NCBI GenBank assembly: GCA_002432865.1
Contig: DJGX01000033.1
Location: forward strand, 4,122 to 68,121
Length of the DNA stretch: 64,000 nt
Direction: 5' to 3'
Origin: Cloacimonetes bacterium UBA5835
GTDB lineage: Bacteria > Cloacimonadota > Cloacimonadia > Cloacimonadales > Cloacimonadaceae
Within the stretch, counting starts at the first letter, position 1. The number at the start of each line of letters is the position of its first letter. Shown here in pieces: positions 1 through 9,978 of this stretch. A program made the position numbers and the translations under genes. The notes beneath the pieces were generated by a model that had not been told where the DNA came from, ran no database searches, and saw only the letters and a list, made by a program, of their open reading frames with translations.

Positions 1-2
1 AT

Positions 3-578
3 TTAGATGATATTCAAACTATTTCCAGTTTAACTATCTTAAGCCATTTAGCCCATAAAGCCGCAGAATATGATACCGAGATTATTGTTCCCTGTAGGTT
101 TTCAATGGTTTTATCTGCCTCTCGAGAAGTAGTAAAAGAAGCATATATAAAAGCTGGGAAACCTGATGCTTACAATCAGGATAGAATTTTTTACTTAACT
201 GATGATCAATTTGGTTATGTGGCAGGAATTGATGGAATTATGGTACGTGAACAACCTGCAGCTAATTTTTTTCTGGGAAGTTTTTATGCTGAATCTTTAA
301 TCTTAGCGGAAACCGGATTTAGTACTGGTGCAATTCAGACTGCTGGAACCGCACAGGCCAGTCAATTACCTTTTTTTGTGGTCTCTTGTGATTACACCTT
401 AATTGGAGAAGAACTTTTTGCTGCATCTGCTTATTTATCAAGAGATCCTCAACAACTGGGTTCACTAAAAGGCCACGATTTTGGAAAACTGTTAGTTATC
501 CTTCTTATAGTGGCTGGAGTTATAGCAGAAATGTCTAATTGGCATTGGTTCAAAGCATTTTTTGAGGGGGCACAATGA
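3..578 (+). CDS. C-terminal part of a conserved uncharacterised membrane-associated protein (tentatively DUF6754-like); 5' end lies outside the window
   Basis: Frame is open from base 3 (LDDIQTISSL...) to TGA at 576-578. Motif GIMVREQPAANFFLGSFYAESLILAETG...QLPFFVVSCDYTLIGEELFAASAYL, then a C-terminal TM helix. DUF label is from memory. Confidence 0.65.
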   Translation, partial: LDDIQTISSLTILSHLAHKAAEYDTEIIVPCRFSMVLSASREVVKEAYIKAGKPDAYNQDRIFYLTDDQFGYVAGIDGIMVREQPAANFFLGSFYAESLILAETGFSTGAIQTAGTAQASQLPFFVVSCDYTLIGEELFAASAYLSRDPQQLGSLKGHDFGKLLVILLIVAGVIAEMSNWHWFKAFFEGAQ

Positions 579-1273
579 AGTATAAAGTCCCTCTTATCTT
601 TGCCTTCGTTTGTGGAATTCTGGTAGTTATTTCAGAATTTATCCCTCACCGTCCTTTCAATATGCTGATCACAACTTTACAAGATTGGTTTATGATTATT
701 TCAGGTTTTGCAATTATCTTGGGACAAATAAGTTTGTTTCAAGCAAACATTAAGAAAATCAGAGGGAAAAACCCAGATTGGCCATTTTATCTTGCTGGGC
801 TCATTAGTTTTTCAATTATGTTAATAGTAGGGCTTTTTTGGGGAACTCAAGAGTATAGAGGAATTCTGGGTCATGGAGATAAAATCCAGGCAGCGATTGG
901 AATGAAACCCTTTGATTACCTATTTGCCAATGCCTTTATGCCTCTTTCCTCAACAATGTTTTCTCTTTTAGCTTTTTTTATTGCTTCTGCTGCCTATCGT
1001 GCTTTTATTATTCGTAGTTTTGAGTCTAATCTATTAATGATTACAGCTGTAATAGTAATGTTAGGAAGAACAAGTTTTGGTGGGATGCTTACTTCTTGGC
1101 TTCCACAAGGGCTCTATTTTTTACATTTACCCAATTTGAGTGATTTCATAATGGAATTTCCCAATTCCGCGGCTCAGAGAGCTATTTTGATAAGTGCCGC
1201 TTTAGGGATTATTGGAAGTAGCTTACGCATTATTCTGGGTATTGAAAGATCTTACCTTGGAGGCGATAAATGA
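575..1273 (+). CDS. Uncharacterised polytopic membrane protein
   Basis: 232 aa, about 6 hydrophobic segments; ATGA overlaps with both neighbouring genes. Confidence 0.8.
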   Translation: MKYKVPLIFAFVCGILVVISEFIPHRPFNMLITTLQDWFMIISGFAIILGQISLFQANIKKIRGKNPDWPFYLAGLISFSIMLIVGLFWGTQEYRGILGHGDKIQAAIGMKPFDYLFANAFMPLSSTMFSLLAFFIASAAYRAFIIRSFESNLLMITAVIVMLGRTSFGGMLTSWLPQGLYFLHLPNLSDFIMEFPNSAAQRAILISAALGIIGSSLRIILGIERSYLGGDK

Positions 1274-2100
1274 GCGCAAACACAAATTCACAAACCGAGC
1301 GCAGAATAATCTACTTAGTTTTGTTAATTGCTGTTGCCCTACCTTTGATTTTTCCTATTGGCTGGAAAACCGAGATCTCCGGTTACACAAAATTAGCATG
1401 GGAACTGATTCAAAATACCCCAGATTCTTCAGTTGTGGTTTTCTCCTTTGATTATGATCCTTCTACCCTAACAGAAATTCAACCAATGGCAGAAGCGATG
1501 CTGGAACATTCATTTTCCCGAAATCAAAAAATTATAGCTATGGCTCTCTGGCCTCAAGGTGTGCAAATGGCAGATCAGGCATTTACAGAAGCGCTGAAAA
1601 AATATCCCGATAAAAAGTATGGAGTGGATTATGTTAATCTGGGCTATAAGGTTGCTGGCATTGTTGCTATCCAAGCAATGGGAAAATCAATGCCAGAAGT
1701 TTTTCCTTCTGATCAACGCGGAATAAAATATGAAGATATCCCAATGCTGAAAAAGGTTAAGACCTTAAGAGATGTTGCCTTTATTTGTTCTCTTTCCAGT
1801 GGAACTCCTGGTATTAAGGAATGGGTTATGGCTGCTCGGGATCCTTTAGGAACTCCTGTTACAGGGGGAACTACAGCTGTCAGTGCCCCTGGCTTATTAC
1901 CTTATGTAAATAGCCAAAAACAACTTTATGGTCTACTGGGTGGGCTTAAAGCTGCCTCAGAATATGAAACTTTGATCAATAAAATTGGCAGTGCTACTAT
2001 TAAAATGGATGCTCAATCTATAGCGCATCTTTTAATTCTGGTGTTTATCATCATCGGTAATATAAAAGCTTTCTATAACAGTAAAAGGAGTGAACAATGA
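1270..2100 (+). CDS. Uncharacterised membrane-anchored protein (N- and C-terminal TM helices flanking an alpha/beta domain)
   Basis: 276 aa; motifs FDYDPST, YGVDYVNLGY, GLLGGLKAASEYE; ATGA overlaps. Confidence 0.8.
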   Translation: MSANTNSQTERRIIYLVLLIAVALPLIFPIGWKTEISGYTKLAWELIQNTPDSSVVVFSFDYDPSTLTEIQPMAEAMLEHSFSRNQKIIAMALWPQGVQMADQAFTEALKKYPDKKYGVDYVNLGYKVAGIVAIQAMGKSMPEVFPSDQRGIKYEDIPMLKKVKTLRDVAFICSLSSGTPGIKEWVMAARDPLGTPVTGGTTAVSAPGLLPYVNSQKQLYGLLGGLKAASEYETLINKIGSATIKMDAQSIAHLLILVFIIIGNIKAFYNSKRSEQ

Positions 2101-2735
2101 GCGGATTTATGGCTACTTTTGGACTCTGGCTTTCAGTTTTTTTCACCTTAAGCATCTTCAGCTTCCTCTATAAAGATAATCCTTTCTATAAACTCTCCGA
2201 ACAAATTTTTGTTGGACTTTCCGCTGCTTACTGGCTAGTCTATTTATATTACAGTGTTATGGTTCCCAATCTGTTTAATAAACTTTTTACCGATTTCAAG
2301 GGAAACCTGATTTTGCTTATTCCTACCGTTTTGGGTTTGATGATGCTACTGCGCTTAATCCCTAAGACACAATGGCTTAGCAGATATCCTATTGCAATAA
2401 TGATTGGTACTTCTGCTGGAATCAATATGGTGCGCTATGCTAAAACTGATCTATTGGGACAAATTAGCGCTACAATGATCAATCCTTTTGCTGCTGATAA
2501 TGTTGTAACAGTAATTGGAAACATACTCCTAATCGTGGGAACTATTTGTGGAGTATATTTCTTTTATTTCAGTAAAAAACAAGAAGGCATAAGAGCAGTT
2601 CCCTCCAAGCTAGGAATTTGGTTTTTAATGATTAGCTTTGGTGCTTCTTTTGGTTATACAGTTATGGCTCGTATCTCTTTATTAATAGGCCGGTTGGAAT
2701 TTTTACTGAAGGATTGGTTGCATATAATTAAATAG
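2097..2735 (+). CDS. Uncharacterised polytopic membrane protein, last gene of the operon
   Basis: 212 aa, about 6 TM segments; ATGA overlap with the previous gene. Confidence 0.8.
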   Translation: MSGFMATFGLWLSVFFTLSIFSFLYKDNPFYKLSEQIFVGLSAAYWLVYLYYSVMVPNLFNKLFTDFKGNLILLIPTVLGLMMLLRLIPKTQWLSRYPIAIMIGTSAGINMVRYAKTDLLGQISATMINPFAADNVVTVIGNILLIVGTICGVYFFYFSKKQEGIRAVPSKLGIWFLMISFGASFGYTVMARISLLIGRLEFLLKDWLHIIK

Positions 2736-2788
2736 TGAGATAGTGAGATGGTGAGGTTGCGAGATAGTGAGATGGTGAGTTGGCAAGA
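2733..2788 (+). repeat. Degenerate 8-bp tandem repeat (TRGTGAGA x7)
   Basis: tagtgaga tagtgaga tggtgagg ttgcgaga tagtgaga tggtgagt tggcaaga, read directly. Confidence 0.85.
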
Positions 2789-2871
2789 TGGAATTTGGAT
2801 ATCGGAATAAATGACATCTTGTCATTTCCTGCCTTGGCTTTATGAACGGATCAAGAAGTTTTTGATATATT

Positions 2872-3633
2872 ATGACAAAAGAAACAGGTGAGTTAATGAA
2901 CGATAATAATTCGGATATGCTCTTCAGCGATGTCTATAATAATGTTTTACCTTTTAGAGACCTGATTCTGCGTATTAGTAAGATCGCTAAAGTTATCCAT
3001 CAACAAGGATGGGCTGAAGCTAATGCCGGAAATATCTCTATCCGTATATCCAATATGCTAATACCCTTTATCCAGAAAAACGGGTGGGAAAATAACTATC
3101 CTTATCAGGACTGGTTTCTTGTTTCCAAAACCGGAAGCCGTTTTCGGGATATGATTGATGAACCGGAGAACTGTTTAATGATAATCGGTGTTGGTAATGA
3201 AGAACATTACTTTCCGGAAGATGCAAAACCTACTTCCGAATGGCTCTGTCACCGTAAAATGCAAGAAATGAACAAACATACTAATTTGTCTTGTATTCTT
3301 CATACCCATCCCACCGAAGTTATTGCTCTTTCTAATACCTCTTTTTTTATAGATAATAAGAAATATCCCAAATGCCTGAATGAACACTTTTATGAGGCAC
3401 TTCCAGAAATACGATTTTTCCTTCCCCAAGGAATTGCTATAGCTGATTATGCTCCTCCCGGAAGTTCTGTTTTAGCTAAAAAAAGCTGTAAGAGTATAAA
3501 CGATAAACAGGCACTTATCTGGGAAAAACATGGTCTCTTGGTTATAGCTGAGAACATAGATATTGCCCTTGACCTTACGGAAGTTATTAATAAAGCGGCT
3601 AAACTATGTCTCTTAAAGCTCTTGAAGTCCTGA
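2872..3633 (+). CDS. Class II aldolase/adducin family protein (rhamnulose-1-phosphate aldolase-like)
   Basis: ANAGNIS, PTSEW, LHTHPTE and WEKHG metal-binding motifs. Confidence 0.8.
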   Translation: MTKETGELMNDNNSDMLFSDVYNNVLPFRDLILRISKIAKVIHQQGWAEANAGNISIRISNMLIPFIQKNGWENNYPYQDWFLVSKTGSRFRDMIDEPENCLMIIGVGNEEHYFPEDAKPTSEWLCHRKMQEMNKHTNLSCILHTHPTEVIALSNTSFFIDNKKYPKCLNEHFYEALPEIRFFLPQGIAIADYAPPGSSVLAKKSCKSINDKQALIWEKHGLLVIAENIDIALDLTEVINKAAKLCLLKLLKS

Positions 3634-8757: not shown

Positions 8758-9978
8758 ATGAAACTGGAAGGAAAAGTTGTTATTGCCCAAGGAGGAGGTC
8801 CTACAGCTGTGATTAATCAATCGCTGGTAGGAGTAACTTTGGAAGCACGTAAGTTTACACAGGTTACCCGTGTTTATGGAGCACTTTATGGAGTTCAGGG
8901 CATCGTTAATGAAGAGTTTGTAGATTTAACCCAGGAAACAACTCACAATTTGGAACAGATTGCCAATACACCTTCTTCTGCATTACTCTCTACGCGTGAT
9001 AAACCTGATGAAAAGTACTGTATGGAAATCTTTAAGGTCTTAAAGGCACACGATGTAAGATACTTTTTTTATATTGGAGGCAACGATTCTGCAGATACAG
9101 TTCGTATAGTAAATGAACAAGCAACTAAAGCGGATTATGAATTCAGGGCTATTCATATTCCTAAGACTATCGATAACGATTTAGTTATGAATGATCATAC
9201 TCCCGGTTTTGGCTCTGCGGCAAGATTTGTTGCTTCAGCTTTTACTGGTGCCAATTTAGATAATCGCGCTTTGCCCGGAGTATATATTGGTGTGGTTATG
9301 GGGCGGCATGCTGGTTTTTTAACTGCTTCCTCTGCGATGGCACAAAAATATCCTGATGATGGACCTCATCTTATTTATTTACCCGAACGTCCTTTCCATC
9401 GGGATACATTTCTAAGTGATGTTAAAAGAGTTTATGATCTATACGGCAGATGTGTGATAGCTGTTTCTGAAGGTATTGTAGATGATAAAGGGATTCCTAT
9501 TGTAACCAAGCTTTCTAACAATCAAGAAAAGGATGCTCATGGTAATATTCAACTTTCAGGAACAGGAGCATTAGGAGATTTACTTAGTGATTTGGTTCGC
9601 ACAAAATTGAAAATTAAACGGGTGCGGAGTGATACTTTTGGTTATTTACAACGTTCTTTCATAGGTTGCGTAAGCGATGTTGATCAGCATGAAGCACGCG
9701 AAGTGGGTGAACGTGCAGCTCATTATGCTATCTGGTATAATATGGATGGTTCAATTTCAATTCAGAGAACCGGTTTTTACTCTGTAAATTATCAGCTGGA
9801 AAATCTAAGTGAGATTGCTGGAAAAACAAGAATTATGCCCAATAACTTCATTAATACTGAAGGAAATGGCATTACTGATGATTTTAGGTATTATGTAAGA
9901 CCATTGCTGGGATCAGGATTTCCTGTGGCACATCGCTTAAGAGCTCCTAAAGTAGCTAAACTGCTATTGGAAAGATAG
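8758..9978 (+). CDS. pfp: 6-phosphofructokinase, probably pyrophosphate-dependent
   Basis: GGGPTAVIN, GGNDS, PKTIDND, MGRHAG. GGAGG RBS supports ATG 8758 rather than TTG 8713. Confidence 0.88.
   Translation: MKLEGKVVIAQGGGPTAVINQSLVGVTLEARKFTQVTRVYGALYGVQGIVNEEFVDLTQETTHNLEQIANTPSSALLSTRDKPDEKYCMEIFKVLKAHDVRYFFYIGGNDSADTVRIVNEQATKADYEFRAIHIPKTIDNDLVMNDHTPGFGSAARFVASAFTGANLDNRALPGVYIGVVMGRHAGFLTASSAMAQKYPDDGPHLIYLPERPFHRDTFLSDVKRVYDLYGRCVIAVSEGIVDDKGIPIVTKLSNNQEKDAHGNIQLSGTGALGDLLSDLVRTKLKIKRVRSDTFGYLQRSFIGCVSDVDQHEAREVGERAAHYAIWYNMDGSISIQRTGFYSVNYQLENLSEIAGKTRIMPNNFINTEGNGITDDFRYYVRPLLGSGFPVAHRLRAPKVAKLLLER

Follow-up and report, generated by a model that had tools for sequence, protein, structure and literature searches.

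What do the four consecutive genes at the beginning of this stretch encode? The window, that is, the whole stretch of 64,000 nucleotides (nt) that was analyzed (G000:C11:4122-68121), belongs to the genome of Cloacimonetes bacterium UBA5835, which comprises 2.17 Mb and is 99.9% complete; its best protein matches point to Candidatus Cloacimonas. The initial annotation described the genes as a translationally coupled operon of uncharacterized membrane proteins that form one complex, possibly an undescribed transporter or sensing system. The genes are termed A to D here, and the system is named after DUF6754, the Pfam family of its subunit A.

Window 1..578 (open reading frame (ORF) 3..578, open at its 5' end), + strand: 3' part of gene A, residues 176-366, Pfam DUF6754.
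G000:C11:3599-4699, + strand: full gene A, 366 amino acids (aa), obtained by reading the contig upstream of the window.
Window 575..1273, + strand: gene B, 232 aa, polytopic membrane protein with six hydrophobic segments, without Pfam family.
Window 1270..2100, + strand: gene C, 276 aa, transmembrane (TM) helix, alpha/beta domain, TM helix, without Pfam family.
Window 2097..2735, + strand: gene D, 212 aa, polytopic with about six helices, without Pfam family.

Four co-directional genes with ATGA overlaps had been claimed, and the corresponding ORFs were found on the + strand; all three junctions read ATGA, and a purine-rich, Shine-Dalgarno-like stretch lies just 5' of each. The operon begins upstream of the window, as had been supposed, with the start of gene A at C11:3599, 523 nt before the first window position. 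The description of two proteins as having about six TM helices holds for B and D, and Pfam and NCBIfam searches agreed with the statement that A, B, C and D contain no ATPase or redox motif. Only the architecture proposed for A and C had to be revised: the alpha/beta domain is present in both, but instead of one anchor each has two flanking TM helices.

A search with a DUF6754 alignment revealed more than 573 loci in a collection containing one genome per species. From these, 80 loci were kept; B, C and D were located by tblastn and complete cassettes were determined by strict ORF calling. The order A-B-C-D was complete in 70 of the 80 loci, which originated from more than 12 phyla and harbored 91 cassettes, up to four of them in tandem. 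Eight of the other 10 loci were cut by contig ends or missed by ORF calling, and only L035 and L073 were without detectable partners in the available sequence. The initial annotation had made its proposal dependent on conserved co-occurrence in other genomes; the observed co-occurrence is far beyond chance, and a paralogous cassette exists in the same genome. Carriers belong to the Cloacimonadota, Zixibacteria, Fermentibacteria, WOR-3, Ignavibacteria, Planctomycetota and Poribacteria; furthermore, the system occurs in Coatesbacteria, Eisenbacteria, Stahlbacteria, Rifleibacterium, metagenome-assembled genomes (MAGs) labelled Deltaproteobacteria and one Myxococcales genome. Within the Cloacimonadota, the majority of genomes have it. 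DUF6754 had three matches in the genome studied here and none in 14 control genomes. In the phylum of locus L044 (Ignavibacteria-type), all 285 of 285 genomes contained DUF6754, typically in 5 copies, and therefore offer no presence/absence contrast. When 1.84 billion representatives were searched with a profile of B, 2376 clusters (50% identity) matched at E≤1e-10, and 2938 homologous clusters were found for C; all B and C homologues listed that bear a name are called 'hypothetical'.

The gaps between cassette genes are short, with medians of 9-11 nt at the junctions. Pairwise distances were correlated among all pairs of the A, B, C and D families (r=0.72-0.82, 93 cassettes); therefore, the cassettes duplicate and diverge as units. 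Additionally, three C-D fusion proteins were identified, namely P0121 (L082), P0145 (522 aa, at a locus that reads A-B-CD) and P0150 (632 aa). P0145 and P0150 contain one extra TM helix each between the C and D parts and are topologically coherent. At L082:13592-15307, the C and D frames are merged in one 571-aa ORF without an extra TM helix, maybe by loss of a stop codon or by an assembly error of the MAG; the model of this protein (P0121) was taken for the fold of each part only and its C-D packing was left unused.

Expression was examined by means of metatranscriptome contigs from digesters, sludge and wastewater, the depth of which is not a measure of expression level. Such contigs covered the window operon and also two further loci of this genome described below, a second cassette on contig C38 and a gene trio on contig C40. 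At the window locus, coverage included one additional gene.

C11:2730-3527: lipoprotein-like gene U, 265 aa, which precedes gene A.
Window 2809..2852, + strand: probable 3' end of the transcription unit, a hairpin followed by a fall in metatranscriptome contig coverage.

The contigs covered U-A-B-C-D and started at L003:2654-2714, just before U, in four runs. An 8-bp AT-rich hairpin is located 3' of gene D at window 2809-2827; in run X6, a contig ended just past it at L003:6973, equivalent to window 2852, and the depth was 0.6 thereafter. Because the genes are real, expressed, conserved, co-evolving and linked, we conclude that A, B, C and D very probably encode one predicted membrane complex. 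Conserved order, translational coupling, the three C-D fusions and the correlated divergence of the four families all lend indirect support to the initial proposal on this point.

What kind of complex might this be? Subunit A is a clear member of DUF6754 (PF20539): the part encoded in the window scores E=3.3e-93, and the complete protein matches all 257 positions of the model at E=1.4e-123. The gathering score of PF20539, 27 bits, was passed by A (411.5 bits) and by its two paralogues A' (386.7 bits) and A'' (373.2 bits) encoded on contig C38. This Pfam entry, to which no function is assigned, covers A but none of the other three subunits. Protein A begins with a signal or anchor sequence; an Fn3-like domain follows, then a TM helix, an alpha/beta domain and a second TM helix, the last three elements forming DUF6754. 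The assignment of the N-terminal domain rests on a profile of 54 homologues, which matched titin and other Fn3 structures in the PDB. An AlphaFold (AF2) model of residues 108-366 (pLDDT 89, pTM 0.83) displayed the element order TM-alpha-(beta-alpha)x6-TM. The DUF6754 domain is the most conserved piece of the complex, with a mean column identity of 64% as compared to 45% for B, 33% for C and 31% for D, and contains 41 invariant positions, many of them acidic. An acidic motif of the HAD-like or CheY-like type after its strand beta-1 was considered and rejected, since the Asp residues lie outside the invariant or nearly invariant columns.

The C domain, modeled within an orthologous C-D fusion with pLDDT 90-98, showed the same order of elements as the A domain, TM-alpha-(beta-alpha)x6-TM. 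An alignment of 51 homologues revealed invariant residues Q249, H253 and N264 in the C-terminal TM helix of C. For D, an alignment of 54 homologues gave two invariant motifs: FLYKDNPFY follows TM1, and FGASFGYTVMARISL lies in the last helix. An ancient duplication of a bitopic-plus-polytopic pair would make A homologous to C and B homologous to D. Such homology was not shown: hhalign returned probabilities of 4% for A versus C and 0.6% for B versus D, and the likeness of the A and C alpha/beta domains consists in the shared element order of their predicted models.

The initial annotation had named a confident match to a characterized transporter family as a finding that would contradict it; Pfam, NCBIfam, PDB sequence and profile, and Foldseek searches provided none. 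B, C and D, each together with 51-54 homologues, matched no Pfam or NCBIfam family and gave scattered sub-threshold matches only. In PDB sequence and profile searches, B, C and D had no match below E=1, and A matched only Fn3, in its N-terminal domain. Foldseek searches of the PDB with the models of the A domain and the C-D fusion yielded nothing at E≤1e-3; the best matches (E=2.4e-3 with the A domain and 6.4e-3 with the C-D fusion) were generic Rossmann-like halves of GT-B glycosyltransferases with TM scores ≤0.38.

Topology was derived from hydropathy and positive-inside counts on homologues (53 for B) and from the C-D fusions. In A, the Fn3-like domain would be periplasmic and the Rossmann-like DUF6754 domain cytoplasmic; in C, the alpha/beta domain would be periplasmic and both termini cytoplasmic. 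B is predicted to have both termini inside. D is predicted to begin outside, based on positive-inside counts, the extra TM helix of P0145 and P0150, and an extra C-terminal TM helix with a basic tail in long D variants.

Under this topology, most of the insertions specific to a lineage would lie on the periplasmic side. They include extra Fn3 modules in A, a 129-aa insert in C', the C paralogue of the second cassette, and, in B, inserts between TM5 and TM6. Between TM3 and TM4, B accommodates an FG-GAP propeller, and inserts of up to ~450 aa are present in this loop in roughly one-third to half of the top B matches. In D, the TM4-TM5 loop carries HHH (ComEA/GspK-like, in Myxococcota), EF-hand (in one D variant) or a coiled coil of ~280 aa. 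Among 57 long B variants scanned with Pfam, domains were named in three only, TPR, WD40 and FHA in one protein each, to which no loop position was assigned. The types of insert lean to protein or polymer partners over small solutes.

A design that is variable outside and invariant inside might also belong to a transmembrane sensor or signal transducer, the variable periplasmic domains detecting ligands and the conserved cytoplasmic domain relaying the signal. The EF-hand insert of one D variant and a PilZ gene upstream in one Myxococcales operon would suit such a role. However, Pfam recognized no kinase, cyclase, HAMP, PAS or receiver domain in the cassette or consistently adjoining it, and four membrane subunits with ~16 TM helices in up to 5 copies per genome appear heavy for a sensor. 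We regard this explanation as very improbable.

The paralogous cassette in the same genome lies on another contig.

Contig C38 (L004): cassette A'-B'-C'-D'-A'', encoding A' of 975, B' of 209, C' of 404, D' of 200 and A'' of 929 aa.

The proteins of this cassette are 34-47% identical to those encoded in the window, and A' and A'' have extracellular regions of ~700 aa. A similar arrangement was found in four other Cloacimonadota genomes, in which two long-A genes lie ~5.4 kb apart, like those of A' and A'', and a short-A gene is located elsewhere. Metatranscriptome contigs covered the C38 cassette from ~1061-1089 to 9299-9440, and single contigs ran from D' into A''.

Three minor observations concern the same contig. 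Upstream of A', at L004 (G000:C38) 600-1000, many joints and loose ends with metatranscriptome contigs were noticed, as for a REP-like repeat. In the intergenic region between D' and A'', at L004 6528, one base of the assembly was missing in 4 of 4 RNA runs, which may reflect a strain difference or an assembly error. On the minus strand, a 755-aa ORF at L004 9719-11986 converges on A''; by eye, it resembles a DNA methyltransferase or restriction-type enzyme.

Which partner could serve these cassettes? PF13941 (MutL/GlmL) was the only Pfam family that recurred upstream across phyla (15 of 121 neighbor proteins). These neighbors have a length of ~620 aa, and the next gene encodes a 375-aa protein without family. 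In ~35 of the 80 loci, a GlmL-like gene and its partner are found no more than 8 kb away from ABCD, directly upstream in the clearest cases; homologues of p131 lie directly upstream of GlmL in 11 loci. A Myxococcales genome even unites the genes in a single operon, PilZ-GlmL-P371-A-B-C-D. The genome studied here contains the corresponding genes on a separate contig.

Contig C40: gene string consisting of purQ-like, ComF-type phosphoribosyltransferase, p131, GlmL-like (620 aa) and P376 (376 aa).

The 620-aa protein matched Pfam MutL PF13941 with E=2.4e-129, and the phosphate motifs of the ASKHA (actin/Hsp70/sugar-kinase) fold, DCGSTTTKA, DIGGATTD and GSGGVLSH, are readable in it. It shares the MutL match and these motifs with GlmL/MutL, Or-4 and other GlmL-family ASKHA proteins; unlike the GlmL and Or-4 models, it is ~160 aa longer, is paired with p131 and the 376-aa protein, and is linked to membrane cassettes. 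P376 gave weak matches to the NqrA_N and RnfC_N barrel-sandwich families (E=0.003-0.006, below the Pfam cut-offs). A phosphohistidine swivel domain in P376 had been suspected from one His of the copy in this genome and was rejected, as this residue is not conserved in 12 aligned orthologues. The GlmL-like and P376 genes were covered by metatranscriptome contigs; coverage was zero by ~8914, shortly after the P376 stop codon at 8796, which argues for RNA and not contaminating DNA.

Each of the 4 genomes checked has one copy of the partner, and two of these genomes have 4 and 5 copies of A; the genome studied here likewise combines one partner with three A genes. Furthermore, the partner was found in 46 of 51 Cloacimonadota genomes, and the five without it are complete 1.6-Mb genomes of one genus. 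All five of these genomes also lack DUF6754, whereas both are present in 7 of 7 controls checked. This co-loss of partner and DUF6754 is consistent with a link; it amounts to one event and is statistically not strong. On the whole, the ABCD complex probably works together with the trio of p131, GlmL-like protein and P376.

A region like the 376-aa partner (E=1e-15 to 1e-45) was also noticed in ORFs of ~950-1060 aa in other Cloacimonadota (e.g., G288:C13:575990-576688 and G318:C8:15477-16580), the size of which fits a fused GlmL-plus-partner paralogue. The ORF in G288 lies 2.3 kb upstream of a long-A cassette; an ORF of this kind is missing in the genome studied here and in its three closest relatives.

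We propose, at roughly even odds in our own judgment, that A-B-C-D forms the inner-membrane core of an ATPase-coupled translocation or transduction machine with exchangeable cassettes. The single-copy ATPase trio would dock on the cytoplasmic side, which is conserved, of any cassette that a genome encodes, ATP turnover would be coupled to the movement of cargo or to conformational signaling across the cytoplasmic membrane, and the variable periplasmic parts would select the partner or cargo. That the system translocates a cargo is conceivable, if short of probable, because a single engine would supply many cassettes, the outer face varies and the inner one is invariant, and the partner is ATPase-like. 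More tentatively, and somewhat unlikely in this full form, the system might constitute a new class of primary-active machine, in which one ASKHA-fold ATPase module (p131, GlmL-like protein and 376-aa partner) would energize several interchangeable four-subunit cassettes, each composed of two oppositely oriented pairs of a bitopic alpha/beta subunit and a six-TM subunit. We know of no transporter, pump or secretion system with an ASKHA engine or with such a paired architecture.

If true, a whole class of inner-membrane machinery would have been overlooked, because it is absent from model organisms (none of the 14 control genomes), while its carriers dominate anaerobic digesters and sediments; the coupling of an actin/Hsp70-fold ATPase to a membrane complex would represent a new principle of energization. 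Even if the role were more modest, thousands of membrane proteins now called 'hypothetical' would receive an annotation, the 2376 clusters of B alone being an example.

Several observations speak against an ATPase-coupled machine. The trio is unlinked to both cassettes in this genome, and the coupling leans on other genomes and on the one co-loss. The 620-aa protein stays under the NCBIfam cut-offs, with 166 versus 204 bits for the glmL family TIGR01319, 220 versus 475 bits for GlmL (NF040745) and 198 versus 600 bits for Or-4 (NF040744); moreover, ATP hydrolysis by GlmL-type proteins is poorly documented. No substrate path was identified, and the domains found inserted so far are protein-interaction or scaffold modules, not classic solute-binding domains. 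The FHA insert of one B variant belongs to a usually cytoplasmic type of domain and is a possible exception to the periplasmic pattern. Regarding the models, the D part of the C-D fusion reached moderate confidence (pLDDT 60-80), and the fusion of L082 is without the extra TM helix that the proposed topology demands. The literature library searched contained no paper that mentions DUF6754, PF20539 or PF13941, and a search for GlmL/ASKHA gave only noise.

The nature of the inserts leads to a special case of the proposed machine, one with macromolecular cargo: an envelope machine for the insertion, export, quality control or anchoring of envelope proteins, polysaccharide or DNA, driven or serviced by an Hsp70/actin-fold ATPase. 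The periplasmic decorations are typical of protein or polymer interaction, with Fn3-like domains in the ~700-aa ectodomains of A' and A'', FG-GAP, TPR and WD40 in B, and ComEA/GspK-like HHH in D of Myxococcota, and the partner ATPase has the ASKHA fold. Against this stand the restriction of HHH, TPR and WD40 inserts to single lineages, the lack of the Hsp70 substrate-binding domain in GlmL-type proteins, and the lack of any signal for a polymer-wide channel; Pfam and fold searches showed no similarity to Sec, YidC, Tat, T2SS, T4P or Wzx/Wzy components. This variant appears unlikely, though not far-fetched.

The number of cassettes per genome raises yet another explanation. Several paralogous cassettes (typically 5 in the Ignavibacteria-type phylum) resemble substrate-specific transporter families, and a periplasmic alpha/beta domain in C together with two polytopic subunits could indicate a secondary or binding-protein-type solute importer, e.g., for amino acids or peptides in an amino-acid fermenter. 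C would then be a tethered binding domain, B and D the permease, and the GlmL trio a regulator or unrelated, as would agree with cassettes unlinked to the ATPase in this genome. Nevertheless, Pfam, NCBIfam, PDB sequence and Foldseek searches detected no similarity to a transporter family, C is a single Rossmann-like lobe and not a two-lobed binding-protein fold, and none of the inserts (TPR, WD40, FG-GAP, FHA, HHH, EF-hand) is solute-binding. The strongest constraint acts on the cytoplasmic domain, which was lost together with the ATPase partner. A solute importer is decidedly unlikely on this evidence.

Comparison of the proposed ATPase-coupled machine with known systems yielded analogies of architecture. 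In ECF/ABC importers, several membrane or specificity components draw on one common energizing module; likewise, one cytoplasmic module per genome faces 2-5 membrane cassettes here, and the inside is conserved whereas the outside is variable. In contrast to these importers, the DUF6754 system is without ABC ATPase, EcfT or S-component homology, and its putative engine has a different fold. No ABC_tran or permease match was obtained for A-D or U; ABC genes lie upstream only in some other Cloacimonadota. There, a gene for a 1087-aa fused ABC ATPase-permease was observed upstream of U; this gene is missing at the window locus.

Na+-NQR and Rnf contain two six-TM subunits of ~200 aa in opposite orientation and a bitopic subunit with a periplasmic domain (together NqrC, D, E or RnfG, A, E), as well as a cytoplasmic alpha/beta subunit. 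The DUF6754 system shares with them, as to architecture only, the predicted oppositely oriented six-TM pair and the bitopic periplasmic alpha/beta subunit; it differs in that sequence and fold searches gave no match, cofactor motifs are absent, and NqrB/RnfD and NqrF/RnfB have no equivalent. One might think of a cofactor-free relative of ion-translocating, Rnf/Nqr-like redox complexes, or of a membrane anchor that tethers a metabolic enzyme maintained by a GlmL-type reactivase. Apart from the architectural echo, the weak NqrA_N/RnfC_N barrel-sandwich matches of P376 and the association of GlmL relatives with B12 mutases, going by NCBIfam names, speak for this explanation. The barrel-sandwich matches, however, remain under the Pfam cut-offs, and no Rnf-Nqr, FMN-binding or Fe-S Pfam match occurred in ~160 members of the B, C and D families at E≤0.1. 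In B and D, the alignments contained neither an invariant Cys nor conserved Cys/His clusters. No redox or B12 enzyme adjoins the system consistently; a B12 mutase is neither adjacent in this genome nor recurrent beside related loci. Either version is hardly credible.

A search of PADLOC-DB v2, which models established and candidate anti-phage defense systems, produced no match for A, B, C, D, U, p131, the GlmL-like protein or P376. The DUF6754 system is undescribed in the papers searched and far from known kinds: the searches made here assigned it neither to ABC nor to Rnf/Nqr systems, nor to transporters or secretion components of the PDB, nor to entries of PADLOC.

Finally, the surroundings of the operon were inspected. 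Upstream of U, G000:C11:1422-2730 is a stretch of 1.3 kb without any ORF ≥70 aa except one TTG-initiated ORF of 75 aa, and it showed almost no metatranscriptome coverage; tRNA and Rfam scans of this ORF-poor stretch found nothing. Scans for promoter and terminator consensus sequences gave counts not above those of shuffled sequence. Downstream, 86 neighbor proteins were examined with Pfam and none was kept across phyla; the combination of an AMP-binding enzyme with a class II aldolase is confined to Cloacimonadota, and TonB-dependent receptors occur in this position only in Fermentibacteria. At the window locus, a class II aldolase-family gene (window 2872-3633) follows directly after the operon, its best NCBIfam match being rhamnulose-1-phosphate aldolase, below the cut-off. 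The gene of the AMP-binding enzyme, which lies between D and the aldolase gene in other Cloacimonadota, is absent here. From the stop codon of D onward, an octamer, ATAGTGAG, is repeated six times in tandem (window 2732-2789); no second array of this kind exists in the genome, and it can also be read as a 24-nt unit repeated 2.2 times.

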